A stretch of 64,000 nucleotides of DNA from Candidatus Berkelbacteria bacterium RIFCSPLOWO2_01_FULL_50_28. GTDB taxonomy: Bacteria; Patescibacteriota; UBA1384; 2-12-FULL-50-11. The notes beneath the pieces are model-generated. The model did not search any database and was not told the DNA's origin. It saw only the letters and a list, made by a program, of their open reading frames with translations. Location of the stretch: the NCBI GenBank assembly GCA_001774395.1, contig MEZX01000002.1, forward strand, positions 96,753-160,752, written 5' to 3'. Positions within the stretch are counted from its first letter, which is position 1, and each line of letters starts with the position of its first letter. Shown in pieces: positions 1-38,598 of the stretch. The translations under genes were made by a program, and so were the position numbers.

Positions 1-65
1 AAGGGGTTCGACAGGCTGCGGGAAAAGCCGCCCAACAAGCAGCTAAGGCGGCTACTCGGGCGGCT

Positions 66-965
66 ATGGCTGCGGCAAGAGCAGTCGGAGCGCTTATCTC
101 GTCCGGCCCGGTTGGATGGATAATTCTCGCCATCCTGATCATTATTATTCTGGTTTTTATTCTCATAGCGATCCCATCGTTTAGCGGCATATTTGGTGGC
201 GGGCCTGGATCTTACCCAACCACCCAGGTCCAGAAAGAGCAGGCAACACTACTGGCGGCGCTAGCCGGTGATCGTATCTCGAAAAACGAAGTTGTTTTAG
301 AAGTGGTTAAGGATGAGAAAGAGCGCTACGGCCGCATCGAGTCCAACGCCACAAAATATGACCCTAGCTTGAGTGCTTCCATCACGGCCAAGAAAGTTGA
401 ATTTAGCAAGCTACTCGATTCGATGATGGCCGAAACTAATCTCGACCGCAAAAAGGCCGCCGTCAAAGACATTCAGGCGAAAATGATCTTGTTTGAAAAC
501 ACCCTGCCGTTTGGGAGATGGATTTTTAGCATCGCCAGCGCCAGTGTCGATCAGCCAAGCGGCAATTTTTGTCGAGTGACAAAGGTTGCCGGCACCCTAG
601 CCTGCGCCTCATTCGTCTCAACTGTTTTGTCTGACGCCGGCGTACCCAACTCGATCGTTGCTACTACTGAAGCCGTTTGGGAGATCGCCGGGTTGCGAAC
701 GGTCGTGAACCGCCCAGACACCAAAAGCGACTCGCTGTTCGATAAAAGCAAAGGGGCTTTACGTCCAGGGGACATTATCTGGTGGGGCGATGGGAACTGT
801 AGCTCGGTCAAACGAGCCACCAAAATATTTGATCACGTCGGTTTTTACATTGGAGACGGCATGTCGATTGATAATAGTTCCGAATTGGAGAAAGTGGCAA
901 AACGCCATGTAACCGGCCGTGATTGTTGGGCATTTAACGGAGCCAAGAGATATGGTAGCGACTAA
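66..965 (+). CDS. Membrane-anchored NlpC/P60-family (CHAP-superfamily) cysteine peptidase, putative cell-wall hydrolase. The frame is open back to nt 3, so the true start may lie upstream of the window.
   Basis: N-terminal Ala/Lys-rich stretch followed by a TM helix (WIILAILIIIILVFILIAI). Catalytic-type motifs LACASFV (Cys) and HVGFYIGDG (His) match the NlpC/P60 'DCSGFV...HVGIYIG' pattern. Confidence 0.6.
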   Translation: MAAARAVGALISSGPVGWIILAILIIIILVFILIAIPSFSGIFGGGPGSYPTTQVQKEQATLLAALAGDRISKNEVVLEVVKDEKERYGRIESNATKYDPSLSASITAKKVEFSKLLDSMMAETNLDRKKAAVKDIQAKMILFENTLPFGRWIFSIASASVDQPSGNFCRVTKVAGTLACASFVSTVLSDAGVPNSIVATTEAVWEIAGLRTVVNRPDTKSDSLFDKSKGALRPGDIIWWGDGNCSSVKRATKIFDHVGFYIGDGMSIDNSSELEKVAKRHVTGRDCWAFNGAKRYGSD

Positions 966-3900
966 CCGTCGAGGGCTCTTGGTATTACTGGCGACCCTGA
1001 TTGCCGTTTCACCGTTAATGCTCTCTGTTGCTTTTACCACGCCCGTTAAGGCGGTCGCCAGTTCTGTATCGTGGACGGACGGCGCTAACGGCTCACCGGA
1101 GGATATGCTTGGAAACCCCAACTACTACCAGGTCGCCAGCTCTTTAACCACCCTTGGAGCAGTGCTCTCCACCCGCGACAAGCTAGTGATATCGCCGCAG
1201 GACATGAATTACATCAAAGACGGAAAAGTGGACGTGCGCACCACTGATTACCTGATCTACCTAGTAACACCTGTTGAACTGGGCGGCGCTGGATTCGACC
1301 ACATCAAAGCCGGGCGGCTACTTAAAAACTACGACAGCGAGGGCGTTGGCAAATACGACCGCGAGACACTGGCCGCGGTGGAAGAGGACCAGAGCTTTGT
1401 CTCAACCCATAACCGCGGCACGGCGGTTGATGTTACTCAAGTTGGCTCAATTACCTGCAAACTAATCGAAAAAAGACACGTCGGTGGCAATACTACAAAG
1501 TGGCAAGCGCCCCGTAACATCGAGGTTGCCTGGCAGTCAACGGCCGGCATCGCTCGTCATCCCACACCGAAAGGTCCCAGTTTGGTGGAGATTGCCGGCG
1601 GTCTTACCGCCCAGGGCTGGTTGCGGCTCCTTAACGATTCCGGACAGCTGGACGAGGTGGCGGACTTTGTTAAGGGGCTGGACTTCAACAGTATCGTTGC
1701 CTATGTAGGGGCAAACATTCTTATCAAGCACTACGGCGCTGGTGACGTGACTTCCGATCCGCTAGCCAACGGCTTAATCGCAACGATCGGCGCCTCGGTT
1801 CTGCAGAAATCTATTCCCGATCTGCCAGCCGGTTTTGGAATTGCCTCGCGCGACGACGACATCCGCGTGGCTATGGTTAAGGCGCGGCTTGAAGAAACAC
1901 TAAACTTGCCGCCCGGGTCGCTTCGTGGCTGGGGTTGGAACGAGCTACTTAAGAGCACCGGCAAGCGTAACCTCGAGGGAGCGTTAAGCCTGCCTGCCCT
2001 ATTTCTCGAATCGCACGATCTAGCCCAACTCAACTCCTCCGCCAAGAACAACGGGGCAGTTAAGATGCTGAAGCGCAACGACGACGCGTTTAATGTGCCG
2101 CGCGGCTCCTTAGAAAAGATTCGCGCCAACGACGAGGATGGCTTGAAGTTGGCCGGGGTAAATATCCTCGCCGATGCCTTGCGCCTAACCGACGTCCAGA
2201 AGAGCGAGTTGTTGAAGATTGCTCAGAATAAACCGGGGCATGTTGACCTAACGGCCGTGCCGCTCGACGACAAAATTACCCCGACAGATCTACAGCTACT
2301 CTTCTCCCCCAAAGACTCCGACCATCAAGAAGTAGCCGGTAAATTCAAACAGCTCGGTCTCCAGATGTTGCAAGAGGCGATCAAGAAAGCGACTCCCAAC
2401 CAGTATCTCGGCGTTACAACTGACCTACTGAATAAGTTGGCTTACGGACAGCAAGATATGTTGCTCGGCAAGGTCACCGACGATATCGGGGCCAAAAAGA
2501 TTGCTGCCGACTCTGGGATAAAGGTTGAAGATTCTAAGAAGATCACTAGCGGCAAAGATAGCCCCTTGGCCAGCCAGATCGCCAAGTACATTAACGACGA
2601 GTTTCGTCTCTCGGGCAACGGCGCGGTAAATGCCGAGGAAACCAACGGCGTTCTAAAAGGTAGCAACTTCAAGGTTTTCGAGCGCCTCGGCGGAGCGCAG
2701 ATCGACAAAGCGTTGGATTTCAACTCTGGTACCAGCTTCGAGATCATTAGCGGCAAGAAGGATCTTGGCGATGGCTTGAAAGAAGCCTTTGCTCGCTCGA
2801 TCGGCTCAATTGTGGGTATTGATCGTGACTACCCATTGGACTTGAACGGTAACTTACAGCGCAACTACGGCACAGCCATCATTGAGTCCCGACTCGGTTT
2901 AACGAAGGGTCGGCTGAGCAGTATGAGTAGTGAAGAGAAAGTAACGTTTTTTGGCGGCAACAAAGATTCCTGGCAGTATAGCGATGTGCGCCTCGGTCTA
3001 CCTGCCGGCAGCTCGCAAGCGTTCTTTGAAGGTAAAATCACCGCCGACCAGCTAGCCGACAAGGCGGCCAACAACAACATCAAAGAAATCGCCGTCGATC
3101 AAATTTGGAATTTTTTCGATACTTCCGGTAAGTACAAAGTTGGCGACAGCGACGCCAAGGAGATTATTGAAACATTTAGTGACTGGTCGGCGAAAGAGCC
3201 GGCAGACCGCGACAAAGCGATTGCTCTAGCGCTGAAGATCGCCGGACGAAGCTTCGACCAAAAAGCCTCCTTTGCGATTGACTTTGTACGTGGCATTTCC
3301 GACGGCGGCCAAGACGAACAGAATACTAAACGAGTGATCAAAGAGGGCGTTCGGTTACTTTTCGAGGCGATGGGGATTAACGAGAAGTTCGGAGGCTCTC
3401 AGTCGCCAGACAAAATGGCCGAACTTTTGCTGAAAACCTACCAAGACACTTCCTTTAATCCAGCCGGTTCGAGCGGTAACCCCGAGATCGGCGGAATTCC
3501 CCAAGGACGACTGGAAGATTTCATCAGTAAAGCCACCGGCATCCCGAAAGAGTTCATGCCTGATATACGGGCTTTTATCGGTGGCGATTACCGCTTAGCT
3601 ATCAACCACTGGTCTGGAGCGATGTGGACCGATTTTGCCAATAGGTTCCTGCCTGAAGACAACGTTCTTAAATACGAAGATATTCGCAACTCAGTTATTA
3701 TGGACAACCAGACGTTGATCGATCAGGAAGCGTTCCGCCTTTATACTGTTGCCCAGGAAGAGCTTGGCGCCACCTATAACCTAGAAAACTTCAACCTTCT
3801 CAGCTACGACCAGCAGCAAGAGTTCCGCGCCCAAGCGCGTAAGCAACTGATGCAGCGCTTTGACGCCGAAGCCCGTTACAAGATTTCTGATGCCTTTTTG

Positions 3901-5334
3901 AATCAGTCGCTATACGACAAAAAGATCGTTGTGCCGAAAGATTTCTCCAAGATTATGTTTACCGGCACCGACAAACAGCGCGGCGAGCTTCTAACCGATT
4001 TCGCCATTGCCAATCTTGATGTAGCCCTAACCGAAGTCATACCTGGGTACAAGGCAGGGACATTGCAGTTGATGTTCGATGGCGACCTAACGGATACCGA
4101 GAAAAAGGCGATATTACTGAACCAAATATACAGCTACGGCGCCCAGCTGGCCGGATCGTCATTCAACAGTATCACTGGGCTCGGTGAGGACTTTTTGGGA
4201 GACTTTGCGACATTTGTGGTCTCTGGTGGAAAGAGCAACTTCTACACTGACCCGAAGTACGAGTCGATGTGGAGCTCTCTGGACGGTTGGCTGACGAGTA
4301 ATATAGGGATCGACGGTCTGCCAGTGGGAATATCGAAGTCAATTTACCTGGCGTTTAACGGTAAGTTTGATGCTGGTCGCAGCCTCAAAGGGGCGAACGG
4401 ACAGATCATCGTACCGTCACTCAATAGCCTCGGGCGAGACTTTCTAACTAACCGCGTTACCCAGTGGGCCGACGACGCTCTGGGAATGCCGGCTGGCACC
4501 GTCTATCAGTTGTACCAAGCAACAGTTGCTGTTATCCGGGCCTCCGAAGCGCTTTCGGCAATTCAGGCCGCGGCACCGGCGCTCAACTTAGTTGGTGTCT
4601 CCGCCGACCAGCTCACCGCCGCCGCTCGGGGTAATCTGCAGGCCGCCCAGAATCAACTCGTTTACCTTGCTATCACCACCGCTTTGAATGCCTGCGCCGC
4701 TTGCCAGGAGTTCTTCGGTTCAGTCGATCAGGCACTCGCCGCTCCCCCGGGTTTCACCAACGCCGCCGTCGCCGGTGCGATCGCCAACTCGCTTGGTATG
4801 GGCCCGATCGGGCTCTACATTGCCGCCGCAATATACTTGTTTGGCGTTTACGACGTTGACTACCGCTGTCCGGTGCCGCCGAACGAGCGCTACGCCTACA
4901 CCCAGTTCGACGAAAAGCCAGACCAAATCGTCTACAAGTGGGGTAGCTACTACAACGACCCCGCAGTTACGGTGAAGTCTAACCCCAAACTAGGGAACAA
5001 ATACTTGGGTAAATTTGACGAAAACCCGTTTGATTGGGACAACAGTGTGCCGTTTAGCGACGGGAACGATTCCAACCTCTGGATGTACTGGTCGCGCTAT
5101 TTCACTGGACGATTGCTTGAAGCAACGCTGGCCTATACCGCCGGTAAGGATAGTCGTGATAAACCAAACCAGATAATTACTTTTCGCCAGGCTAATGTGG
5201 AGTTCTTCGGCACTACCGCCGCGGCCGCTTTTGGTAGCAAAGGAAAAGATAACGAACGCGTGGGGCTTGGATTCTCGCAGAAGTCGACTAAAACCACCGA
5301 TTGGGTTCACATTGGGTTTGGAGGGTACTTCTAG
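952..5334 (+). CDS. Giant secreted protein (about 1460 aa) with an N-terminal signal peptide and a hydrophobic segment near the C-terminus; function unknown. The ORF track offers an alternative upstream start at 919.
   Basis: Long uninterrupted ORF. Signal-like MVATNRRGLLVLLATLIAVSPLMLSVA; C-terminal hydrophobic helices (GPIGLYIAAAIYLFGVY). Overlaps the upstream gene and abuts the downstream gene (operon). Confidence 0.6.
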   Translation: MVATNRRGLLVLLATLIAVSPLMLSVAFTTPVKAVASSVSWTDGANGSPEDMLGNPNYYQVASSLTTLGAVLSTRDKLVISPQDMNYIKDGKVDVRTTDYLIYLVTPVELGGAGFDHIKAGRLLKNYDSEGVGKYDRETLAAVEEDQSFVSTHNRGTAVDVTQVGSITCKLIEKRHVGGNTTKWQAPRNIEVAWQSTAGIARHPTPKGPSLVEIAGGLTAQGWLRLLNDSGQLDEVADFVKGLDFNSIVAYVGANILIKHYGAGDVTSDPLANGLIATIGASVLQKSIPDLPAGFGIASRDDDIRVAMVKARLEETLNLPPGSLRGWGWNELLKSTGKRNLEGALSLPALFLESHDLAQLNSSAKNNGAVKMLKRNDDAFNVPRGSLEKIRANDEDGLKLAGVNILADALRLTDVQKSELLKIAQNKPGHVDLTAVPLDDKITPTDLQLLFSPKDSDHQEVAGKFKQLGLQMLQEAIKKATPNQYLGVTTDLLNKLAYGQQDMLLGKVTDDIGAKKIAADSGIKVEDSKKITSGKDSPLASQIAKYINDEFRLSGNGAVNAEETNGVLKGSNFKVFERLGGAQIDKALDFNSGTSFEIISGKKDLGDGLKEAFARSIGSIVGIDRDYPLDLNGNLQRNYGTAIIESRLGLTKGRLSSMSSEEKVTFFGGNKDSWQYSDVRLGLPAGSSQAFFEGKITADQLADKAANNNIKEIAVDQIWNFFDTSGKYKVGDSDAKEIIETFSDWSAKEPADRDKAIALALKIAGRSFDQKASFAIDFVRGISDGGQDEQNTKRVIKEGVRLLFEAMGINEKFGGSQSPDKMAELLLKTYQDTSFNPAGSSGNPEIGGIPQGRLEDFISKATGIPKEFMPDIRAFIGGDYRLAINHWSGAMWTDFANRFLPEDNVLKYEDIRNSVIMDNQTLIDQEAFRLYTVAQEELGATYNLENFNLLSYDQQQEFRAQARKQLMQRFDAEARYKISDAFLNQSLYDKKIVVPKDFSKIMFTGTDKQRGELLTDFAIANLDVALTEVIPGYKAGTLQLMFDGDLTDTEKKAILLNQIYSYGAQLAGSSFNSITGLGEDFLGDFATFVVSGGKSNFYTDPKYESMWSSLDGWLTSNIGIDGLPVGISKSIYLAFNGKFDAGRSLKGANGQIIVPSLNSLGRDFLTNRVTQWADDALGMPAGTVYQLYQATVAVIRASEALSAIQAAAPALNLVGVSADQLTAAARGNLQAAQNQLVYLAITTALNACAACQEFFGSVDQALAAPPGFTNAAVAGAIANSLGMGPIGLYIAAAIYLFGVYDVDYRCPVPPNERYAYTQFDEKPDQIVYKWGSYYNDPAVTVKSNPKLGNKYLGKFDENPFDWDNSVPFSDGNDSNLWMYWSRYFTGRLLEATLAYTAGKDSRDKPNQIITFRQANVEFFGTTAAAAFGSKGKDNERVGLGFSQKSTKTTDWVHIGFGGYF

Positions 5335-6522
5335 ATGCGGCGCGGAGGGGCCTTGTGGCTAATTGTCATCGTTATATTTATCGTCCTGACGCTGGTGGCA
5401 GTGGTCCTGCCGTTTGCGGCTTTTGTCGGCATTGGCGCCAGCGGCCCCATTGCGCAAGCAACTGGCGCAGGCGGTAGCGGGCTAGGATGTTTTGTTGCCG
5501 ACCAGGAATTCTCTAATATATCTGTCGCTAACAATCCCGACGAAATCGTCGTCAAACTGGGCGCTAAGTATCCCGCCGCGAAACTGAACGCCGCTTATAT
5601 TAAACAAGTCCTCGAGAGAGGTAAGAAGGAAGGACTCAACCCCCTTATACCGCTGGCTATTTGGAACGGCGAACAGAACTTCAAGAACCCCGAGAAGGCT
5701 TTTGGATACGGCTATCGTGACTCCGGAACCGACAAAGGAGTATCAAATTGGGACGCGCAGTTGAACGGCGTTTACCGCTCGACCCGTTTGGCGACGCAGT
5801 CTCAGGACCCTTACGACAGCCCTTCCGGAACAAATTCATTCACTCGACTTTTCTACCACTACACTACGGCCATGAAAGTAATCTACGAGAACAGCGGTAA
5901 CTCTTGGGACGAGGAAGCCACCTATAAGGACGGTAGTAAGCCTCTAAAGAATCGCCTTGCCGTAATTCGCTTGCTCGCTCCCAGCCAAGTTACCTGTCAA
6001 TCCGTACTGGTCTCTGGTGTGAGCTCCGGGCAAGGGAACGACGGCGTGCCGCTTTTCAAGCAAGGTGATTACAAAAACATCGATTACGCCCCTGGCAATA
6101 GTATCGCCGCATCCGGCTGTTGCACAACTGCTGCTGCGATGATTCTGCGATTTTATGGCAAGCTCGACGCCGATCCAATCTCAATCTCGAAATTCTCCTA
6201 CCAAAATGGAGCCTATGTAGCAGGTAAGGGGACAGATCACGCCAAGTTAGTGCCACTGCTGGCTAAAAAATACAGCCTGAACTACGAAGTTCTGGGAAAC
6301 GACTGGAGCAGAGCGCTAACTCACCTCACTAACAACCATCCGCTCTTAGCGGCAGGGAAGGGCGCCCTACCGTACACTTCAGGCGGTCACTGCATCGTGA
6401 TAACTGGGTATAACGCCAAAACCGGCGAGCTCCGTATTAATAACCCGGCCAAAGGTGACGGACCGTATCCGTTAAGCCAAATTAAGTCCGAGACACATGC
6501 GCTATACTTTTTGGGACGATGA
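5335..6522 (+). CDS. Membrane-anchored secreted protein with a C-terminal papain-fold peptidase C39-like domain.
   Basis: Start codon immediately follows the stop of the giant ORF. N-terminal TM helix. Motifs ASGCCTTAAAMILRFYG (C39 Cys block, cf. 'DCGxAALxMxLxxYG') and GGHCIVITGY (His block). Confidence 0.6.
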   Translation: MRRGGALWLIVIVIFIVLTLVAVVLPFAAFVGIGASGPIAQATGAGGSGLGCFVADQEFSNISVANNPDEIVVKLGAKYPAAKLNAAYIKQVLERGKKEGLNPLIPLAIWNGEQNFKNPEKAFGYGYRDSGTDKGVSNWDAQLNGVYRSTRLATQSQDPYDSPSGTNSFTRLFYHYTTAMKVIYENSGNSWDEEATYKDGSKPLKNRLAVIRLLAPSQVTCQSVLVSGVSSGQGNDGVPLFKQGDYKNIDYAPGNSIAASGCCTTAAAMILRFYGKLDADPISISKFSYQNGAYVAGKGTDHAKLVPLLAKKYSLNYEVLGNDWSRALTHLTNNHPLLAAGKGALPYTSGGHCIVITGYNAKTGELRINNPAKGDGPYPLSQIKSETHALYFLGR

Positions 6523-7112
6523 GTAAGAAACTAATATTTGTCATTGGTGGGCTGGTAGCCATTGGGGCACTGCTGTTTGCTTGGTTCTCTCAACGTGGCA
6601 CCCTAGAGGTTGTCCTCGGCCAAGAAAGTAAGATCAAAAATGGTGTTGAGTTCAGCCTGAGTAATGACAAATTCCGTCAAACTCGCACTCTTCCCGCCAC
6701 CTTAAAAATGTCACCAGGAAAATACACCTTGTACGCCTACGGTAAAGACAGTGACGTCTTTCGTCGCGAGTTTTCGATAGTCGCCGGCGATAAAACATCG
6801 ATCGAAGTACTATTGGGGAACAACCCCAACCAAGCCCTAATAGACTCGACGACCGATTTTAATAACGCCGAGAGTATCCCGTACTACACACTCTTCCCTT
6901 ATGATGGTGGGGATTTTGCAATTGAAGCAACTCCAGACTTTGGTGACAAGCGCATTTCGAAAATAACCATTACCGTGTTTCACCGCTTCGCTCCACCAAG
7001 TGATGCAGAGATGTACACCTCCGAGCGTGATATTGGCGTTAAGGCCGCTAAGAAGTGGCTACAAAAAAACCAGGTGCCTTCGAGCATCCCAATCGAGATC
7101 ATCGACAACTAG
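6519..7112 (+). CDS. Hypothetical N-terminally membrane-anchored protein, last gene of the operon.
   Basis: ATGA overlap with the upstream gene; N-terminal TM helix LIFVIGGLVAIGALLFAWF; no recognised motifs. Confidence 0.5.
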   Translation: MSKKLIFVIGGLVAIGALLFAWFSQRGTLEVVLGQESKIKNGVEFSLSNDKFRQTRTLPATLKMSPGKYTLYAYGKDSDVFRREFSIVAGDKTSIEVLLGNNPNQALIDSTTDFNNAESIPYYTLFPYDGGDFAIEATPDFGDKRISKITITVFHRFAPPSDAEMYTSERDIGVKAAKKWLQKNQVPSSIPIEIIDN

Positions 7113-7390
7113 CCTCGACCGCGCTCAACCGAAATCCGCAGCTTTCTTGGTGAAGTTTTACCGCCCACAACCAATCCGACAATTGCGTAAATTTTTGGCT
7201 TTAGAAGGCTCAGTTTGAACGCCCCCTGCTCAGACTCGCAGTTAATCACAATATCCTTGGGCCGAATAACAACTCTTACCTTTAAGCCAAACTTCTCAAG
7301 TATTTTGGTTTGAATTTGCTGCGCTTGATAGATGCGCTTCAGCGGCCCTGAGTCTGGTTGGTGCAAGATACTCTTTAGAGACTCAAGCAT
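7109..7390 (-). CDS. Small protein downstream of recF, DUF721-like (RecF-associated).
   Basis: 8-nt overlap with the recF stop. Conserved genomic position of DUF721 genes. Weak match to the DUF721 pattern (VVIRPKDIVINCESEQGAFKLSLL). Confidence 0.4.
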   Translation of the reverse strand: MLESLKSILHQPDSGPLKRIYQAQQIQTKILEKFGLKVRVVIRPKDIVINCESEQGAFKLSLLKPKIYAIVGLVVGGKTSPRKLRISVERGRG

Positions 7391-8432: not shown

Positions 8433-9521
8433 CTAGTCGCTGCGTAACGGCATCAACAAGTAAAGCATCTTCTCCCCACCTGTCGGACGAACAACTATCG
8501 GGCTCTTAGCGTCATTTAGGCCGATCTGGACGTCCCCAGAGAGAACCGCCAGGGCATCGATTAGATACTGGGCATTAATCGAAACTATTACCTCGCTCTC
8601 AACTTTCTCCGTTAACGGAATTTCGTTAGTGTTCTCCCCTAATTGAGTTGAAACTGCTGTGATTGTTATCTTGTTATCTTTAAAAAGAATCTTTGTGCTG
8701 TAGGCCGAGTCGCGCGAGAAGAGGCTTGCCATACGAAGCCCTTGAAGTAACGAGCTCGAGGCAACGGTTAGGGTGGTGGGGGTTTTCTTGGGGATAATCG
8801 CCTCATAAGCTGGGTAGCTACCATCAAGAACTCTGCTCGTTAGACGAGTATCGCCAACAACAAACTTTACCTGATTGGTGGAGGCAGACATTGTAATCGT
8901 GTCAGACCCGTCCAGTTTAGAGAGCTCCGCCATCGTTCGGCGAGGAAGGATGAAATCACCCTCAGTCTCTTGATTTAGAGCAATCTCGCAGCTGGCCAGA
9001 CGATAGCCATCCGTACCGACAACGACCAGGTTCTTACCCTTGAATCGCCAGAGTAAACTGTTCAAAATCGGTCGGGAATCGTCCTGAGCGCTGGCGATAA
9101 TGCAGCGGCTAATTGCCTCCACGATTTTACTAGTCGGAAGCTCGACAGAACTCTCCCCTTTTGCCTGGGGAACGCTCGGATACTCCTCGGCTGGTAATCC
9201 TTTTATCTGAGCTTTGTGGTTCAGGGAGGATATCTTTAATGTGGTGTCGTCACCCTCTATAAGGATCTCTTTATCGGCATTACTTTGTAAATAATCCCCA
9301 AAAAGACGAGCTGGGACGGTGAGCTTTCCAACTTCTTCTCCGTCACCAACAACCTCAGTTTCTATGGTTTGTTCTAAGTTTGTGGCTTGAACCACCAATT
9401 TGGTCTTACTGGCAATCAGCAGGATATTTTGAAGTATCGGTAATGTTGACCGATTGGAGGTTAGTCGTCCGGCAATGCCAACTGCCTTAGCTAAGTTTTC
9501 GCGCGTGGTTCTAAATTTCAT
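8433..9521 (-). CDS. dnaN: DNA polymerase III beta sliding clamp.
   Basis: 362 aa. N-terminus MKFRTTRENLAKAVGIAGRLTSNRSTLPILQNILL is typical of DnaN. Position between dnaA and recF. Confidence 0.9.
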   Translation of the reverse strand: MKFRTTRENLAKAVGIAGRLTSNRSTLPILQNILLIASKTKLVVQATNLEQTIETEVVGDGEEVGKLTVPARLFGDYLQSNADKEILIEGDDTTLKISSLNHKAQIKGLPAEEYPSVPQAKGESSVELPTSKIVEAISRCIIASAQDDSRPILNSLLWRFKGKNLVVVGTDGYRLASCEIALNQETEGDFILPRRTMAELSKLDGSDTITMSASTNQVKFVVGDTRLTSRVLDGSYPAYEAIIPKKTPTTLTVASSSLLQGLRMASLFSRDSAYSTKILFKDNKITITAVSTQLGENTNEIPLTEKVESEVIVSINAQYLIDALAVLSGDVQIGLNDAKSPIVVRPTGGEKMLYLLMPLRSD

Positions 9522-9751
9522 TTTGTGTCTTAGTGGGTTGGTGAATATATATTTTATTTAGTTTACCTAAACAGTATTTGTAATTAGCGTTGGGGATTTG
9601 TGGGTTGTATGGTTTCATCTCTGTGTAGAAAAACTTACATCCTGTGGAAAAGTTGTGCAAATCCTGTGGAGTACCAAACGAACCAGTTGTACCGACAGTA
9701 CTTACTTTTTGCGTCCCCTTCTGGTTGGTAGTTTTCCACATGATATCCACT
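9522..9751. promoter_or_regulatory. oriC: Candidate oriC: the dnaA-dnaN intergenic region with an AT-rich stretch and clustered DnaA-box-like 9-mers.
   Basis: AT-rich ATATATATTTTATTTAGTTT near 9546-9570. DnaA-box variants (consensus TTATCCACA) at TGTGGAAAA 9644-9652, TGTGGAGTA 9666-9674, TTTTCCACA 9732-9740 and TATCCAC 9744-9750. One more TTTTCCACA lies upstream of dnaA at 11146-11154. Confidence 0.65.
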
Positions 9752-11152
9752 TTAGTCATGAAGGGAATTAATAATTATCTTAACATCATTCTCAGTATCT
9801 GGGTCGTTCTTCATCTGTGCCTCAATCTTTCGCGAGCCGTGCATTATGGTAGTGTGGTCCCGGCCGCCGAGCTGATCGCCAATTTGGGGGAACGACTGGT
9901 CTAGAACTTCACGCAGTAGATACATGACGATCTGCCGCGGGTAAACCAGCTCTTGATGACGTTTTTTACCCAAGATATCACTTGGCTCTATCTCGAAATG
10001 GTTGGCGACACAACGAATAACTTTTTTGGCGGTGAGGTTACTCTTGTTGGCTCGACTAAGGTCTTTAACTGTAACGCGAGCAAGCTCCAAATTTAGGGGG
10101 ATTTTCTCAAGTTGAGAACGAGCGGTAAGTTTCGTTAGGGCTCCTTCCAGCTCGCGGACGTTATTAGTTATTTGGTTGGCAACGTAATCTATGACCTCAT
10201 CGGGGATGTTAACCCCCATTTGTTCGGCTTTTTCCCGTAGGATTGCCGAGCGGGTTTCGAAATTGGGCGACTGGATATCGGCGATCATTCCCCACCCGAA
10301 GCGCGATATCAGCCGCTCCTCTAAGTTGGACATCTCTTTGGGGAGTCGGTCGGCGGTAAGAATAATCTGACGGTTGGACTGGTGAAGGGTGTTGAAGGTG
10401 TGGAAAAACTCCTCTTGGGTCCCCTCTTTGTTGGCCAGAAATTGGATGTCGTCAACCAGGAAGACGTCAACGGTGCGGTAGCGGTTCTTGAATTGGTTGA
10501 TGGTCTTGCTCTGTAAGGCATTAATGAACTCCCCAGTGAAAGCCTCGCATGAGGTGTAGATAATCTTTTTCTTGGGGTGGATGTGGTAAATCGCGTTGGC
10601 AACCGCTTGCATTAAGTGGGTTTTCCCCAGCCCCACCCCACCGTAGATAAACAGCGGGTTATAGGCGCTGCCGGGTTTTTCGGCGACGGCTTGGGCGGCG
10701 GCAAAAGCCAGGCGATTATTATTCCCCACCACGAATGTGTCGAAGGTGTATTTCTGGTTGAACTGCGGCGGTTCTCGCGGTGGCTGTTTTGCTTTGTCGT
10801 CGCGATCTTCAACAACCTGAAGTAACGGTAGCTCGTCGACGTCAACGGCTTTCGTGGCTGAGACCACAAGACGCAGTTCAGTATCGGCTCCAAAATGGTC
10901 GCTCAGGATTTTGGTAATACTCTTCGCGGCGTTCGCTTCAACCCAACTCTTTGTGTACAGGTTGGGCACGGCCAGAGTAACGGTATTATCAATCCGCTCC
11001 ACAAAACGAACCGGTTTTAACCAGGTATCGAAGTTCGGCCGACTCACGGTCGATTTAAGTTGTTGTAAAATGTCTTGCCAAATTGCTTCGCTCATTAATC
11101 TTATTTTAGGTTCAACCGCATGGAATGTACTAGAGTTTTCCACAGAGGGCAA
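9752..11152 (-). CDS. dnaA: Chromosomal replication initiator DnaA.
   Basis: AAA+ Walker A GGVGLGKTHLMQAVANAI; sensor and C-terminal DNA-binding regions (NVRELEGAL...HTTIMH); 466 aa. Confidence 0.95.
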   Translation of the reverse strand: MPSVENSSTFHAVEPKIRLMSEAIWQDILQQLKSTVSRPNFDTWLKPVRFVERIDNTVTLAVPNLYTKSWVEANAAKSITKILSDHFGADTELRLVVSATKAVDVDELPLLQVVEDRDDKAKQPPREPPQFNQKYTFDTFVVGNNNRLAFAAAQAVAEKPGSAYNPLFIYGGVGLGKTHLMQAVANAIYHIHPKKKIIYTSCEAFTGEFINALQSKTINQFKNRYRTVDVFLVDDIQFLANKEGTQEEFFHTFNTLHQSNRQIILTADRLPKEMSNLEERLISRFGWGMIADIQSPNFETRSAILREKAEQMGVNIPDEVIDYVANQITNNVRELEGALTKLTARSQLEKIPLNLELARVTVKDLSRANKSNLTAKKVIRCVANHFEIEPSDILGKKRHQELVYPRQIVMYLLREVLDQSFPQIGDQLGGRDHTTIMHGSRKIEAQMKNDPDTENDVKIIINSLHD

Positions 11153-14861: not shown

Positions 14862-14900
14862 ATGCGCATAACTGCGACAACCTCGCAGGGGAGGCAGAGA

Positions 14901-15347
14901 TTGAAGTATCTCCTTTTCGCCCTTTTCGCCGTCTGTCTGATCGGCTGTGCCGATCCGATCCAAGAAGCAGTGGAACAAGACAACCGTGAGTTCCAGATAC
15001 GAGACACTCAAAGAACTCGGGAATCGACCCAGATGCCGATCGCTCGATCCGCCAGCAACTACGTCTCCAAGACGATCAACGATAAACTGCTCCTTCTCGG
15101 AGAGGACGAGTGGCTGATCGTGGAAGTCCACATGCCAACCGCGGAGAATCGAATCTTCGTCCTCAGCAAAATTGACCCAGAAAGCAAGGTCCGTATAACT
15201 GAGGTTGTCGAATTCAAGGAGAAGGATTACGGCTGGGGAACCGGAATGATTGCTTGGGTCGGCGATATTGTCAGAAAAGCTCCTGTTTTACCCAATGATT
15301 TGATGGGGACAAATAGGAGCATGCCGAAGTGTGGCTACACTTTCTGA
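14901..15347 (+). CDS. Small lipoprotein of unknown function, with a TTG start suggested downstream of the promoter (track ORF starts at 14862).
   Basis: Lipoprotein signal KYLLFALFAVCLIGC (lipobox LIGC); RBS AGGGGAGG 6 nt before TTG 14901. Confidence 0.55.
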   Translation: MKYLLFALFAVCLIGCADPIQEAVEQDNREFQIRDTQRTRESTQMPIARSASNYVSKTINDKLLLLGEDEWLIVEVHMPTAENRIFVLSKIDPESKVRITEVVEFKEKDYGWGTGMIAWVGDIVRKAPVLPNDLMGTNRSMPKCGYTF

Positions 15348-15396
15348 CCTGGTGAATCGATTTGTCATCAGTGATCCACGTGGCGCCAACACGAAA

Positions 15397-15431
15397 CCGT
15401 CGGAGAGATCTCTCCGACGGCTACTTTTTAT
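15397..15431 (+). terminator. Bidirectional rho-independent terminator between the lipoprotein gene and the convergent comFC.
   Basis: Perfect 24-bp palindrome CCGTCGGAGAGATCTCTCCGACGG followed by CTACTTTTTAT. Confidence 0.65.
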
Positions 15432-15576
15432 CTTCATAAGCGTTCCCACCCTCAATTTAAGGAAGGGAGCGAAACTCTCGAAAAAGAATTAGGAAGAATC
15501 GAAGCTCAGAAGAAGAAATAGGATTGTCTTCAGCGTGGTTCGGACTTTCGTGTGCCGGCGCGCAAGAGTTTAGGTT

Positions 15577-16281
15577 TTAGCCGTGGGCAATGGTGATGGC
15601 CCAGACGGTTTTGGCGCCTTTGCGGCGCAGGAGTATTGCCGCTTCCCCCAGGGTGGCGCCGGTGGTGATGACGTCGTCAACGAGAAGAATATTTTCTGGA
15701 ATCTCTTTCGTTCCGACGTAAGCGAAACATCCGTGCACGTTGGTGAGGCGCTTGGTTTTTGTTAGTTTCGCTTGGGCAGGAGTGTCATTTTTGCGCTTCA
15801 ACAGGTTGGAAACTTCCTCACGGCCGGCAAACATTCTTTGTGACAGAACCTCGCTCTGGTTAAACCCACGCTTGGCTAAGCGTTTTTGATGAATTGGGAT
15901 CGGCACGACCGTCCATTCCGAATGCGGCAGGCGTCGCAGATAATGCCGTCGAAAAGTATCAGCGTAAAAACTCAAGGCGTCAAAATGTCCGCCGTACTTG
16001 GCTTGCTGAACCAGGTCTTGAATTACCGGCTCGGCGTAGGAAAAAAGACTAACTACCCCGTCAAGCGGTACTCGCTCTTGGCACTTGGGGCAGATGCCAT
16101 TATCGGCCGCCTTATCACAGATGACACAGCTTTCGGGACGGCTCGCGGTCAGTTCTCTGCGACAATCGTCACAGATCCAGCCGCTCTCTTGGCCACAGCC
16201 GAGGCAGTTAACGGGGGCAACGAGGTTTTTCAAAGCATTTCCTAGCTCGGTCATTGTCAACATTATGGCTTGACTGACCAT
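15577..16281 (-). CDS. comFC: ComF-family competence protein with a phosphoribosyltransferase domain (ComFC).
   Basis: N-terminal double zinc ribbon (CLGCG...CDDC...CVIC...CPKC) plus PRTase motif LLVDDVITTGATL. Confidence 0.8.
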   Translation of the reverse strand: MVSQAIMLTMTELGNALKNLVAPVNCLGCGQESGWICDDCRRELTASRPESCVICDKAADNGICPKCQERVPLDGVVSLFSYAEPVIQDLVQQAKYGGHFDALSFYADTFRRHYLRRLPHSEWTVVPIPIHQKRLAKRGFNQSEVLSQRMFAGREEVSNLLKRKNDTPAQAKLTKTKRLTNVHGCFAYVGTKEIPENILLVDDVITTGATLGEAAILLRRKGAKTVWAITIAHG

Positions 16282-16298
16282 ATCATAACTCGCATAAT
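16270..16298 (+). promoter_or_regulatory. Sigma70-like promoter of hsp20. The predicted TSS is only about 2-3 nt before the ATG, so the mRNA is probably leaderless.
   Basis: -35 TTGACT 16270-16275, 17-nt spacer, -10 CATAAT 16293-16298; ATG at 16308; no SD sequence. Confidence 0.5.
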
Positions 16299-16307
16299 AA
16301 ACGCACT

Positions 16308-16685
16308 ATGGCTAAGAAAGAAGAAATTCAGGAGGAGTGGGTTGACGAAGAAGAAGAGGGTCAGCTCGCCATCGACGCCTATCAAGACGAAGACAATATC
16401 TACATCAAGGCGCCGATTGCCGGAGTGAGCGTGGAAGATCTAGAGATTTCAATTACCGACGAAGTGGTGACGATTAAGGGCACGCGACGCAACGAAGGAG
16501 ATTTGGCGCGCGAGAGTTACTTTGTTCAAGAGTGCTACTGGGGTTCGTTTATGCGCTCCTACATTCTGCCAGTATCGGTTGATGCGGCCAAGGCCGACGC
16601 CAGTTTGCGTAACGGCATTCTAACGATTCGCATTCCGAAACAAGAGAAGACCAAGACGAGAGTTCTTAAAGTTCAAGTAGATTAA
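16308..16685 (+). CDS. Hsp20/alpha-crystallin family small heat-shock protein.
   Basis: 125 aa. Alpha-crystallin domain pattern AIDAYQDEDNIYIKAPIAGV...GILTIRIPKQEK. Confidence 0.85.
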   Translation: MAKKEEIQEEWVDEEEEGQLAIDAYQDEDNIYIKAPIAGVSVEDLEISITDEVVTIKGTRRNEGDLARESYFVQECYWGSFMRSYILPVSVDAAKADASLRNGILTIRIPKQEKTKTRVLKVQVD

Positions 16686-31480: not shown

Positions 31481-32953
31481 ATGTCTCCTTGGGGTAAAGT
31501 TGCCAGCTCTGTTGCGATTCAATATTTCGGTCGGACGCTTGGCCTATTAGTCTCGTTGGCCTCGACAGCGATCCTTACCCGAACGCTTGGCGTCGCTCTT
31601 TACGGTGAATACACAACAGCTCTTGCCATCGCGGCGCTGGTTGTAACTTTTGCCGATCTCGGATTTTTCTGGTCCACAATCAAGAGCCTGAACGTTGAAG
31701 GTGATGCCAAGACCATCGCCAGCGAGATCTCGGGCATCCGTTTTGTCGTTGCCTCAATACTGACGGCCCTAATGCTGTTAATCGTTTGGCAAACGAGCTA
31801 TCCGCTCGAGGTAAAGCAGGCGGTCAGCGTCTTGGGAATTTTTACGGTTTCTGGAGCGATGAACAACGTGCTGATCGCCGTTTTCCAGCAGAGCTACGCC
31901 ATGGTGACGCCGACTGTGGCCGAGGCGGCCAGCCGTATTGTTAACCTCGGGCTGATAATGCTTGGCTATCTGCTAGGCAAGGACCTCATCTGGTTTATTA
32001 GCGCTGTTAGTATCGCCTCGGTAACGGGGTTACTTATCAACTGGGCGGTATTGAGCTGGCGTAACGGCGTCATCTGGCCGAAAATAATCGGTTTCTCCTG
32101 GAAAAAGTACTACCGTTCGGTGGCGGTTATCGGCGCGGTGATGCTCTTTAACGCGCTCTATCTGAAAGTGGACGTGATCGTCCTCTCTGCTCTTAAGAGC
32201 TCGGTTGACGTTGGTATTTACGGAGCAGCGCAAAGGGTGATAGAGGTTGCGATGGTGTTTCAATCACTGTTTCTCGCGGCAGCTTTCCCCTTATTTCTGG
32301 CCCGCTTTCGCGAAGGATCGGCTCAATTTTCTCGTACGGTCACGGAAAGCCTGATGGTGGTCTTGGCTTTCGGGCTGCCGGTTGCCCTGGTCCTAGCGTT
32401 GTTTAGTGGCGGTTTGATTAACTTCATTGCTGGTCGGGAGTTTCTAGAGACGACTACGCTCGTAATAAATGGTACAGCGATCACGGCGGCAACAGTCTTA
32501 GCGGTTTTGAGCGCTTACGTCTTGCTGGCGCATGTCGGCGGGGTTATTGCTCTTGCTTTGCTGACGTCGGACCACTTGCGGTGGCTGTTTTGGGTGAACG
32601 TTGGAGCGTTCTTGGTTAATATCGGTATGAATTTGGTGCTGATCCCCCACTACTCTTACTTGGCCGCCGCCGCTATGACGGTCGTCACAGAGCTGATTAT
32701 CGTGGCGGCTAATTTTTACTATCTCTGGAGTCGGCATAGGCCTGCTATCAGCGGGAGCACTGTTGGACGGCTACTGGGTTCTGCCACGCTGGCCGGGCTA
32801 GTTGCCTTATTCTTACCGAGTCAAGCTCATGTATTAGTTAAGGTTGTAGTTACCGTTGCCCTGTACGGTACGGCAGTCTTCCTGACGGTCCCCGCTTTGA
32901 GAGCTCTTGTGGTCAGAGTCTTCCAGCCGCCAACGGAGGAGTCGCAGGGATGA
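31481..32953 (+). CDS. Polysaccharide biosynthesis protein / oligosaccharide flippase (MOP superfamily, Wzx-like).
   Basis: 490 aa, about 14 TM helices; N-terminal region is typical of Wzx/PST-family flippases. Confidence 0.7.
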   Translation: MSPWGKVASSVAIQYFGRTLGLLVSLASTAILTRTLGVALYGEYTTALAIAALVVTFADLGFFWSTIKSLNVEGDAKTIASEISGIRFVVASILTALMLLIVWQTSYPLEVKQAVSVLGIFTVSGAMNNVLIAVFQQSYAMVTPTVAEAASRIVNLGLIMLGYLLGKDLIWFISAVSIASVTGLLINWAVLSWRNGVIWPKIIGFSWKKYYRSVAVIGAVMLFNALYLKVDVIVLSALKSSVDVGIYGAAQRVIEVAMVFQSLFLAAAFPLFLARFREGSAQFSRTVTESLMVVLAFGLPVALVLALFSGGLINFIAGREFLETTTLVINGTAITAATVLAVLSAYVLLAHVGGVIALALLTSDHLRWLFWVNVGAFLVNIGMNLVLIPHYSYLAAAAMTVVTELIIVAANFYYLWSRHRPAISGSTVGRLLGSATLAGLVALFLPSQAHVLVKVVVTVALYGTAVFLTVPALRALVVRVFQPPTEESQG

Positions 32954-34455
32954 ATTTTTATCAAAGAGTAGTATCTCATCGTTATTTCTTTCTGGCGGCC
33001 AGCGTTTCGATCCTTCTAACTCAGCTCATATTGAGCTACTACGGCAATTTTAGGTACAACTACGATGTTGCCCCGGGGGACGACGTCTATAACCATCTGC
33101 GTTATATCGAGACTGCGCGGAGAAACCCGGAGTTCTTACCGACCCCTAGCTACCCGCCGGGGTTCCATTATCTAGTGTTGGGCGCTTCCCTGTTACTGAA
33201 CACAACGCCGTCCAATATCCTACTGTGGGGCTGGCCGATTCTGTTGGTGCTCTCTTCTCTAGCGGTGATGCTGCTGGCGAAAAAAGTTTTTGGTGCGCGA
33301 GTAGCTCTTGTGACCTTGGCACTTTACGCTTTGGTTTCGCTGCAGCCGCTCCAGACGGCCTACGATGGGACGCTGGCCAACCTGTTCGCCGGTAATGTTA
33401 TCATGCCTTTAGCTCTTATCGCGCTCATAAACCTCTGGAAAGATGAGGGCAGGTTGATCTGGCGAAACGCTCTGCTTTTCGCTTTGGCGGCGTTTCTGGT
33501 TGCCTACAGCCACCACCTCAGCGCGATAGTCCTGTTCGGTACCTTCCTCCTGGCTGGAGTGGCGAGATTTGGTTATCTCGCCGTCAAAAGCCGATTCTCC
33601 GATAAGAAGGCTGTTTATTGGCTCGGCACGATTGTCGGAGTCGGGGTTCTGTCGGTTGTCGGATATCTCTACTTGGACGTTCTCTCGCCGTTGCGTTCGG
33701 TCGTGGCTACCGCGATGCACTCGGTATCACCTGATCGCGTTTGGAAGCTGGGCTACTACGTGACGAGAATCGGTCCGTTGGTGGCTTTCTTTGGCTTTGT
33801 TGGCATGGCCTTGGTGGTACTCGGCAGTATTCGCGGGCGGTTTAAGTTCAGCAATCCGACCGGCCTGGCGGTTGTCTCTGCCTGGTTTGCGCTCTACTTT
33901 TTCGGCTCCCTGATAAGTGCTATCGGCGAACCCGAACGGTTGGGTCGGGACTGGGCGATGCCGGGAGCGATCATGGCCGGTGCGGCTGTCGTGATGATCT
34001 TTCGATACTTGAAGAAGCGGCCTGAGCTGCTACGTCTGGCGGCGGCGGCTTTTGCCATTTTCTTTGCCGTTGGATTTCTGGTGAAGCTCGATCGGCTAAC
34101 TAGCTACAACACTATGGTTAGATTCAGCCAGGCCGATAGAACCACCATGGAGCTCGTTCGGTCCGGTGCTCTCCCGACGCCAATCTATATCTGGCCGAAG
34201 CACCCGTACTGGAAGATCGTGGTCCCCGACCTAATCGCCTCGCGAACGGTTAGGATAGTGGAATCTTTCGCAGAGGCCAAAAAGGTTCTGCGCCAAAAAC
34301 GGGGCTGTCTGATCACCGGCTATAACAAACCAGGTACTTATCCGGAGCGTCTGCAGAATAACAGCCCCCTCATACGGCTGATGAAGGTTAAGGGCGTTAC
34401 CGCGCATTATCTGCTGGAGGATAAGGTAAAAATTTGGTACATTCTCTGTGACTAG
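32950..34455 (+). CDS. Polytopic membrane protein with a C-terminal soluble domain; candidate GT-C-fold, polyprenyl-phosphate-sugar-dependent (GtrC/PMT-like) glycosyltransferase.
   Basis: About 11 TM helices; acidic motif GDDVYNHLRY in the first extracytoplasmic loop; lies upstream of the GtrB-like GT2. Confidence 0.5.
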   Translation: MNFYQRVVSHRYFFLAASVSILLTQLILSYYGNFRYNYDVAPGDDVYNHLRYIETARRNPEFLPTPSYPPGFHYLVLGASLLLNTTPSNILLWGWPILLVLSSLAVMLLAKKVFGARVALVTLALYALVSLQPLQTAYDGTLANLFAGNVIMPLALIALINLWKDEGRLIWRNALLFALAAFLVAYSHHLSAIVLFGTFLLAGVARFGYLAVKSRFSDKKAVYWLGTIVGVGVLSVVGYLYLDVLSPLRSVVATAMHSVSPDRVWKLGYYVTRIGPLVAFFGFVGMALVVLGSIRGRFKFSNPTGLAVVSAWFALYFFGSLISAIGEPERLGRDWAMPGAIMAGAAVVMIFRYLKKRPELLRLAAAAFAIFFAVGFLVKLDRLTSYNTMVRFSQADRTTMELVRSGALPTPIYIWPKHPYWKIVVPDLIASRTVRIVESFAEAKKVLRQKRGCLITGYNKPGTYPERLQNNSPLIRLMKVKGVTAHYLLEDKVKIWYILCD

Positions 34456-35492: not shown

Positions 35493-36438
35493 GGTTGTCT
35501 TTATTACCGGCTATCGACCTGGTGGGCCGTACTATTGGGCGGAGAAATTGGTAAAAAAAATTGGCGAGTTAGATTTGGGCTGGCGCGGCTCTCACCCCAA
35601 AACCCTTTGGCAAACTATCTATTCGGCGTTGATTGCGCCAAATGCCGATGTTGTCCACTCGACACTACCGGTGGCGTTTCATCTGTGGAGACGCCCGTTG
35701 GTGATGACGATCAAAGGTGATTTTGAGCGGGAGAAAGGACCGGGCTATCGCGGCTATCGACGAGCAATTGCCGCCGCCGATGCTGTTACCGTACCAAGCG
35801 AATTTATTAAGCGACAGTTAGGCCTCCACCAAGCGATAGTAATTCCCAACGGTTTCGACTTGCCTAACGCCGTCTCGCGACCTGAGACCGAGCCGGATGA
35901 CCCAATTAAGCTGTTAACGGTGACAAAGTTTCACTTTAAAGACAAAGCGAGCGGGGTGTTGAACTTGTATCGCATTCTGGAGTCCGTGGCCGGCCGATCA
36001 AACCGTCAGATAGTCTGGGACATTTTGGGAGACGGGGCTTTTCGCCGTGAGATCGAGTCGCAAGTAAAGAGTGAGAAAATCAAGATAAACTTCCGAGGTT
36101 TTGTTGACCCAAAGCCTTTCTATCAAAGCGCTGATGTCTTTCTTTATTACTCCGACCACGACAATATGCCTAACGCCATAATCGAAGCGATGGGCTACGG
36201 CTTACCTGTTATAAGCAACGATATCGGCGCCGTTGGCGAGATGATCGATGACGGCGTGAGCGGTTACCTCTGTCGTGACCAACAGGATTACACCGCGAAA
36301 CTTACCCAAATGCTAAAAACCCCCAGTGATTTGGCTGTACTCGGCCGTCAGGCGCGAGAGGTTGTGGCGACGCGGTTTGACAACGACGTCATTACGCGCA
36401 AATACCTAGAAATTTACGAACGGATAGTTACCAAATGA
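35464..36438 (+). CDS. GT4-family glycosyltransferase (GT-B fold).
   Basis: C-terminal EAMGYGLPVISNDIGAVGEMIDDGVSGYL (E-x7-E motif region). Confidence 0.75.
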   Translation: MAAVTQKTRKVVFITGYRPGGPYYWAEKLVKKIGELDLGWRGSHPKTLWQTIYSALIAPNADVVHSTLPVAFHLWRRPLVMTIKGDFEREKGPGYRGYRRAIAAADAVTVPSEFIKRQLGLHQAIVIPNGFDLPNAVSRPETEPDDPIKLLTVTKFHFKDKASGVLNLYRILESVAGRSNRQIVWDILGDGAFRREIESQVKSEKIKINFRGFVDPKPFYQSADVFLYYSDHDNMPNAIIEAMGYGLPVISNDIGAVGEMIDDGVSGYLCRDQQDYTAKLTQMLKTPSDLAVLGRQAREVVATRFDNDVITRKYLEIYERIVTK

Positions 36439-38516: not shown

Positions 38517-38598
38517 GTGCAGCCGTTACTTAACTTTCGCCTCTGTTCTGGTATGATTCCTAGGAATGCAGTTTATTTTAACCTCTAAAAACTGATCG

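Follow-up and report, generated by a model that had tools for sequence, protein, structure and literature searches.

We analysed 64,000 nucleotides (nt) of the genome of Candidatus Berkelbacteria bacterium RIFCSPLOWO2_01_FULL_50_28 (contig MEZX01000002.1, positions 96,753 to 160,752 of the forward strand); this whole stretch is called the window below, and coordinates refer to it. Positions 1–7112 hold four co-directional genes, namely ORF1, a gene for a giant protein, ORF3, and ORF4 (Table 1). These genes and the operon of a type IV secretion system (T4SS) to which they belong are the subject of this study.

Each of the four genes abuts or overlaps its neighbour, as taken from the list of open reading frames (ORFs) and from direct reading of the junctions. 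The end of ORF1 runs 14 nt into the giant gene; the TAG codon of the giant gene directly abuts the ATG of ORF3, with GGAGGG located 9 nt upstream; and ORF3 and ORF4 overlap in the sequence ATGA. No promoter-like sites were found on the plus strand within 1–7112, and terminator-like sites occurred in this segment at chance level only. The start of the window falls at about codon 72 of the 392 in ORF1, and the full gene is present on public contigs. The coordinates and junctions thus agree with the original prediction, made from the sequence of this stretch, of four co-directional overlapping genes, the first of which might begin outside the window.

The locus is present on 19–23 public contigs, and 23 contigs from Rifle groundwater metagenomes encode an identical ORF3 protein. 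Given these contigs and the full-length homologues arranged in conserved order in 14 other genomes, the four genes are real. At NCBI the giant protein is labelled hypothetical and assigned to Candidatus Berkelbacteria bacterium RIFCSPLOWO2_01_FULL_50_28.

Table 1. Coordinates of the genes and protein features at the locus (aa, amino acids; TM, transmembrane)
Feature	Residues (aa)	Window position	Strand	Remarks
ORF1		66 (open upstream)–965	+	3' 320 codons of a 392-codon gene; reading frame open to base 1
ORF1, cytoplasmic N-terminus				acidic/Lys-Ala-rich
ORF1, TM segment		~117–173
ORF1, juxtamembrane region				helical
ORF1, NlpC/P60-type domain		495–962
Giant gene		952–5334	+	ATG start, 1460 aa; same call on public contigs
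Giant protein, signal peptide	1–34/36	952–1059		hydrophobic segment aa 9–27
Giant protein, N-domain	60–215	1129–1596		conserved
Giant protein, motif S151-x-H-x-x-G-x-A-x-D160	151–160	1402–1431
Giant protein, all-alpha body	~205–1065	~1564–4146		LxLPxG[ST] motifs repeat along the body
Giant protein, hydrophobic helices	~1236–1300	4657–4851		CxxC at 1248–1251
Giant protein, C-terminal domain	1301–1460	4852–5331		conserved
ORF3		5335–6522	+	395 aa
ORF3, TM anchor	7–25	5353–5409
ORF3, N-domain	49–224	5479–6006		~175 residues, conserved; invariant Glu in GE(Q/S)xF
ORF3, Peptidase_C39_2	237–372	6043–6450		papain-like
ORF4		6519–7112	+	197 aa; final gene of the operon
ORF4, TM anchor	5–23	6531–6587		followed by a probable beta-sandwich and a small C-terminal domain
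recF, dnaN, dnaA		7383–11152	-	directly downstream of the operon

Composition and conservation of the operon

The upstream genes on identical contigs (loci L001 and L024) revealed that the operon comprises eight genes and not the four that had been proposed originally. Namely, the ~15-kb operon encodes a polytopic, VirB6-like TrbL_3 protein with multiple TM segments (PF19590, 1276 aa), a 254-aa protein, a VirB3-like PrgI protein (PF12666, 140 aa), and VirB4 (868 aa, TraC-like plus P-loop_TraG/DUF87), followed by ORF1, the giant protein, ORF3, and ORF4. The virB4 gene is located directly upstream of ORF1 on the same strand. The overlapping or abutting start and stop codons, together with the absence of internal plus-strand promoter-like sites, indicate that the four genes form one operon with virB4, of which 1–7112 is the distal half. 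A divergent HTH_3 regulator precedes the TrbL_3 gene in both L001 and L024. At its other end the operon runs up against the replication-origin genes, and the earlier statement that the locus lies beside recF, dnaN, and dnaA is correct; these three genes occupy the opposite strand.

The TrbL_3, PrgI/VirB3, and VirB4 genes identify a T4SS of Gram-positive type. The resemblance to Gram-positive conjugation and T4SS modules suggested earlier therefore stands with regard to the secretion system, while conjugation is not evident. The gene list for 24 kb around the operon includes no relaxase, coupling protein (T4CP), or integrase. The same 24 kb gave no match to T4SS_pilin or TrbC, families that would mark a VirB2-like pilin array, and a VirB8-like gene was not recognised there. 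Also, no VirD4-like or pilin family is among the 25 families listed for window ORFs of at least 250 aa. The GC content of the operon matches that of the remaining window.

The gene order PrgI-VirB4-ORF1-giant-ORF3-ORF4-(93 aa)-recF-dnaN-dnaA is kept in 14 GTDB genomes, whose giant proteins share 36–45% identity with that examined here. All 12 of the related genome loci that extend far enough contain VirB4. With no relaxase or coupling protein in the 24 kb and an unchanging place next to dnaA from genome to genome, the system is not evidently conjugative.

In the region 1040–8846 of L024, the VirB4 of Berkelbacteria is a single TraC-like/P-loop fusion, while two genes are present in the distant loci L021 and L023 and in Southlakia epibionticum. 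In another assembly of the same organism (L025), the TrbL_3 and VirB4 genes are each split, probably by assembly errors.

Wall-hydrolase positions and ORF4

The product of ORF1 is predicted to be a TM-anchored NlpC/P60 peptidase. Hydrophobicity places its TM helix at residues 111–129 of the full protein. Six of 11 ORF1 orthologues match the Pfam family NLPC_P60 (PF00877) at E<=0.01, with a best E of 1.8e-6, and a six-sequence profile matched the PDB sequences 7cfl (7.4e-7) and 3h41 (1.9e-4), along with MepS, LytE, and Tn916-type hydrolases. The putative catalytic residues do not vary among the six orthologues: Cys lies in ACASF and His in FDHVG(F/I)Y. ID(N/S)SS occupies the position of the third residue, and the His region aligns with that of NlpC/P60 chains in the PDB. 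A match to conju_CD1108 (17 bits against a cut-off of 100) was driven by the Lys/Ala-rich and TM region and was disregarded, as were matches to RIFIN and tape-measure proteins.

The C-terminal domain of the ORF3 product is, on solid sequence grounds, predicted to be a C39-like cysteine peptidase. It matches Peptidase_C39_2 in Pfam with 63.7 bits against a cut-off of 24 (E 3.5e-17), and the ORF3 profile retrieved the C39-like protein 3erv (9.4e-8), interpain A (4.7e-5), and the C39 domain of PCAT (1.7e-4) from the PDB. The catalytic Cys (SGCC) and His (GGHC) are invariant. The N-domain of this protein is shared with the N-terminal half of a Peptidase_M15_4 protein in the distant locus L023 (blastp 3.6e-22).

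Orthologues of ORF4 were found in nine loci. The family displays weak matches only, to fn3_3, CarboxypepD_reg, and Big_5. Residues 2–92 resemble a 512-aa protein of the L021 T4SS locus (4.5e-4), which in turn resembles a PEGA/beta-propeller protein in L023. The domains claimed originally for the four proteins are retained: an NlpC/P60-like domain and a TM anchor in ORF1, a C39-like domain and an unassigned domain in ORF3, a small TM protein in ORF4, and a C-terminal hydrophobic segment in the giant protein.

Comparison of the related loci showed that the wall-hydrolase positions are cassettes, in which peptidoglycan-cleaving domains are swapped. At the ORF1 position, conservation covers the N-terminal half, and the catalytic domain varies, being of NlpC/P60 type in six loci, M15-like in four, and C39_2 in one. 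The M15-like domain at this position carries SxHxxGxAIDI followed by HxxHIHL, gives weak matches to Peptidase_M15_3 and M15_4, and shares its motif with the N-domain of the giant protein. The ORF3 position has two variable slots. The first is occupied by the unassigned type found in the window, by SLT (L009, L018, and L020), by Glucosaminidase, or by Phage_lysozyme2; the second by C39_2, M23, Amidase_2, or nothing. This exchange was seen across loci L007–L020 in the equivalents of window positions 495–962 and 6022–6519, the anchors and N-terminal parts remaining in place. All of the alternative partners are peptidoglycan hydrolases, and the C39-like domain and the unassigned domain of ORF3 therefore probably act on the wall as well. 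We regard this as the best argument for their role.

The giant protein and its family

Conservation in the giant protein is highest in residues 60–360 and 1230–1460. Its four cysteines (169, 1248, 1251, and 1306) are all invariant. AxA signal-peptidase sites recur throughout the family, and the C-terminal hydrophobic segment is kept even in distant relatives. An LPXTG sorting signal is absent from the giant protein, whose C-terminus reads ...DWVHIGFGGYF. In the AlphaFold2 (AF2) model, the body (residues ~205–1065) is all-helical, with pLDDT values mostly of 85–95 and a pTM of 0.72. The C-terminal model consists of long helices, a hydrophobic helix pair at ~1268–1297, and a compact alpha/beta end domain. 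Lys and Arg are slightly enriched behind the main hydrophobic helix, which speaks for a tail in the cytoplasm; the weaker second hydrophobic helix, which bears the CxxC, and the aromatic-rich tail would suit a hairpin with the tail outside.

The most conspicuous feature of the N-domain is its motif. Residues S151, H153, G156, A158, and D160 are each either invariant or conserved to 90% or more, and S.H..G.[AGS].D was present in 136 of 175 family representatives. In place of a third zinc ligand, 119 of the 175 have W-Q-[ST], with an invariant Gln after the conserved Trp. As a lead, we suggest that the N-domain is LAS-like and probably non-catalytic or non-canonical, and we do not assign it to a family.

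The giant protein has no match in Pfam, NCBIfam, or PHROGs. A Pfam search with 28 family members and nine shorter relatives also gave no match, and no adhesin domain was found in the 28. The family profile produced a chance match only among PDB sequences (E=3). Foldseek comparison of both AF2 models with the PDB yielded best E values of 0.22 and 0.61; the matches to SipB, FAT, HlyD, and YaxA coiled coils were not significant. The body model compared with BFVD gave a best E of 0.12, to tape-measure proteins. The giant family is therefore uncharacterised and structurally orphan in the libraries searched.

An exhaustive search with a hidden Markov model (HMM) of the N-domain retrieved 208 representatives of clusters at 50% identity with E<=1e-3, and 152 with E<=1e-10; the family thus has at least 208 clusters. 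Nearly all representatives are 1400–3300 aa long and have the domain near the N-terminus. The few named members are hypothetical proteins of Patescibacteria. Two distant relatives, P0030 and P0031 (2500–2650 aa), are encoded in T4SS loci that adjoin dnaN, with an SLT protein or M15_4 plus PEGA/beta-propeller proteins on their flanks.

Among metagenome loci found with the N-domain, VirB4 is located within 10 kb in all 13 that have at least 6 kb of upstream sequence, usually with PrgI and a TraC-like gene. It was detected in 21 of the 32 loci overall, the remainder being short contigs. The family tracks VirB4 despite differing gene order and orientation (L021 and L042). The possibility that the genes are unlinked in relatives, raised in the original prediction, is decisively contradicted by this linkage. 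The giant family is as tightly linked to VirB4 as are the recognised core genes.

Relation to known systems and interpretation

T4SS of Patescibacteria are related to the monoderm MPF-FATA conjugation machinery, are often located beside dnaA and dnaN, and usually lack a relaxase; a VirB2-like pilin array is typical of Saccharimonadia and Microgenomatia and not universal (Quinonero-Coronel et al. 2025, PMC12102498). Epibiotic growth of S. epibionticum requires the cluster SEML1_0006-0019 (Wang et al. 2023, PMC10633639), and such a requirement is known for this species only. The following three essential proteins are encoded between recF and VirB4 in this organism: SEML1_0005, an exported protein of PEGA type (211 aa); SEML1_0006, with two lysozyme-like domains and a cysteine proteinase; and SEML1_0007 (1113 aa), with a Hedgehog/DD-peptidase-fold domain at the C-terminus (PMC10633639 supplement). 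ORF4, ORF3, and the giant gene of Berkelbacteria are the positional counterparts of SEML1_0005, SEML1_0006, and SEML1_0007, respectively. To our knowledge, no T4SS had been shown to be essential to its bearer before that of Patescibacteria.

The Berkelbacteria operon resembles SEML1_0004-0019 in having VirB3, VirB4, and VirB6 of Gram-positive type next to dnaA-dnaN-recF, with no relaxase or coupling protein in the cluster. In both organisms, a very large protein is encoded beside VirB4, followed by a protein that combines a domain at the glycosidase position with a cysteine peptidase, and by a small anchored protein of PEGA type. The differences are the lack of a pilin array and of a recognisable VirB8-like gene in the 24 kb examined in Berkelbacteria, the fused 868-aa VirB4, which is split in S. 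epibionticum, and the additional TM-anchored NlpC/P60 gene, ORF1. The giant protein also differs from SEML1_0007 in its length of 1460 aa and in the N-terminal location of the M15-like motif, the peptidase-fold domain of SEML1_0007 being C-terminal.

ORF1 and ORF3 are comparable to CwlT (ICEBs1), PrgK (pCF10), and TraG (pIP501), which likewise have an N-terminal membrane anchor and are encoded after virB4 in a T4SS operon (established knowledge, PMC12102498). These proteins combine a domain at the glycosidase position with a Cys/His peptidase (NlpC/P60 or CHAP). In Berkelbacteria, however, the functions are split over ORF1 and ORF3, the ORF3 peptidase is C39-like and not CHAP or NlpC/P60, and the N-domain of ORF3 is not recognisably SLT or lysozyme. 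A similar mixture of likeness and difference is seen between the N-domain of the giant protein and the LAS/M15 D-Ala-D-Ala peptidases (VanY, Peptidase_M15_3, and Peptidase_M15_4): the near-invariant SxHxxGxAxD is shared, whereas the third His ligand, similarity at the profile level, and a confident predicted fold are lacking.

Considered together, these data make it likely that 1–7112 represents the distal half of a chromosomal, origin-adjacent operon for a T4SS of Gram-positive, MPF-FATA-like type, and that it contributes wall hydrolases and an exported giant arm to this system. ORF1 and ORF3 would be VirB1-type wall-opening enzymes analogous to CwlT, PrgK, and TraG; held in the membrane beside the channel, they would cut the peptidoglycan of their own cell and possibly, as suggested in the original prediction, that of the host. 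The giant protein would be exported by Sec, lose its signal peptide, and stay attached to the membrane via its C-terminal hydrophobic helix or hairpin. Its helical body of ~850 residues would project outward, and the distal N-domain with the M15-like motif may bind or cut peptidoglycan stem peptides. The giant protein could thus provide an extracellular arm or adhesin for the machine, in whose operon pilin genes are absent, and ORF4 could be a small anchored beta-sandwich accessory subunit. The machine would probably serve epibiotic interaction and not conjugation, as in Saccharibacteria.

Several results weigh against this interpretation or parts of it. ORF1 itself scores 18.5 bits with NLPC_P60, below the gathering cut-off of 23. 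The N-domain of ORF3 has no match in Pfam or the PDB and no detectable relative of known function; its hhalign comparison with SLT-type domains from the same position was not significant (E 0.13), and the homologue search gave only eight close relatives. Its assignment as an SLT or lysozyme domain was therefore rejected. The N-domain of the giant protein has no Pfam match even at E<=10, is modelled by AF2 with pLDDT <50, and aligns with M15-like domains in hhalign over the motif only, at a probability of 1–5%. A third zinc ligand (HxH, ExWH, or DxxH) after the motif is lacking in 172 of the 175 representatives and present in three. With similarity confined to the motif and this ligand absent, assignment as an M15 peptidase was dropped. 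The C-terminal topology of the giant protein is ambiguous between one TM helix with a cytoplasmic tail and a two-helix hairpin with an external tail. The giant protein and SEML1_0007 are likened by position and description only.

Additionally, the C39-like domain of ORF3 could be a maturation protease and not a wall hydrolase. C39-family peptidases classically process secreted peptides, and among the solved structures closest to the domain are the double-glycine leader protease from PCAT transporters and two secreted proteases, interpain and SpeB. The substrate would then be a secreted T4SS component, for instance the giant protein or pilin-like subunits. The cassette pattern speaks against this: relatives have M23, Amidase_2, or M15_4 in place of C39_2, and the replacement of C39_2 by peptidoglycan hydrolase domains argues for a shared wall substrate at the ORF3 position. 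A processing role for ORF3 is thus considered unlikely.

The interpretation of the locus as the remnant of an integrative and conjugative element or plasmid seems highly improbable. In that case the T4SS would move DNA, the hydrolases would open the donor wall, and the giant protein would be a mating adhesin similar to PrgB. The T4SS parts are indeed of the Gram-positive conjugation type (PMC12102498), the PDB matches of ORF1 include, weakly, hydrolases of Tn916-type conjugative transposons, and ORF1 has the weak conju_CD1108 match. However, the 24 kb around the operon lack the relaxase, coupling protein, and integrase of such an element, and the GC content does not set the operon apart from the rest of the window. 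The operon occupies the same place beside recF-dnaN-dnaA in 14 divergent genomes, the giant protein has neither LPXTG nor similarity to PrgB, and relaxases occur in few Patescibacteria according to a phylum-wide survey (PMC12102498). There is very little probability, too, that the four genes are a housekeeping module for wall remodelling or division that merely shares the origin-proximal neighbourhood with the T4SS. Four envelope proteins, two of them of wall-hydrolase type, would suit such a module, as would the conserved origin-proximal gene order in these small genomes. Against it are the translational coupling and the absence of internal promoter-like sites downstream of virB4, the association of the giant family with VirB4 where order and orientation differ, and the treatment of the S. 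epibionticum positional counterparts as part of an essential T4SS cluster (PMC10633639).

The original prediction had also mentioned polymorphic toxin systems. The giant protein is large, exported, lineage-specific, structurally orphan, and encoded within a secretion locus, as might be expected of an effector or toxin delivered to the host, with accessory or immunity genes at its flanks. Its C-terminal 230 residues are, however, the most conserved part and not a variable toxin tip, and the hydrophobic anchor is conserved as well, also in distant relatives. The architecture of signal peptide, N-domain, repeats, and anchor is uniform, and each locus has one copy. The giant gene is not followed by a small immunity-like gene; the products of ORF3 and ORF4 are conserved exported proteins. 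The claim of a polymorphic toxin thus fails, and delivery of the giant protein as an effector appears scarcely probable.

The preferred interpretation as a T4SS operon may be extended, tentatively and with more doubt than confidence, to the whole giant family. This family might be an unrecognised core component of the Patescibacteria T4SS: a Sec-exported, tethered helical arm of new fold, whose catalytically degenerate LAS-like head would engage peptidoglycan stem peptides. In lineages without a T4SS pilus, such an arm would physically connect the secretion channel of the epibiont with the host wall or reach across it. The T4SS as such, including its position adjacent to dnaA, is already described for Patescibacteria (PMC12102498, PMC10633639). 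New here are the pilin-less version carried by Berkelbacteria in a single eight-gene operon, the cassette behaviour of the hydrolase positions, and the large, widespread, unannotated family tied to VirB4. The latter is a concrete target for structure prediction, cryo-electron tomography, and genetics in cultivable relatives.

Several further genes were noted downstream of the operon. A conserved 93-codon gene (7109–7390, minus strand) between ORF4 and recF is convergent with the operon, and its stop codon overlaps that of ORF4. DciA was considered for this gene and rejected; it has no Pfam match and does not resemble the gene with a weak DciA match at the equivalent position in L023. Between dnaA and dnaN, and overlapping each of them, is an 82-codon ORF (9511–9759, minus strand); every public contig has it as a called gene, and it matched no family. 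A lipoprotein-like ORF of 161 aa, a ComF-type phosphoribosyltransferase gene, and an Hsp20 gene are located together at 14862–16685. The first of these, near comF and hsp20 (14862–15347), was considered as a pilin candidate and rejected as lipoprotein-like. Hsp20 and comFC also come after the T4SS cluster in S. epibionticum (SEML1_0020-0021; PMC10633639).

The large ORFs at 11000–64000 include genes for a T2SSE-type secretion/pilus ATPase, an H+-pyrophosphatase, a VanW-like protein, and several glycosyltransferases. Four tRNA genes are present in the window, three of which are tRNA-Ser. The AT skew of the plus strand is strongly negative at 32000–34000 (-0.275) and at 36000–40000 (about -0.15 to -0.18). 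These regions are covered by plus-strand ORFs of 490–693 aa inside a block of glycosyltransferase and polysaccharide-synthesis genes and are probably T-rich genes for membrane proteins.

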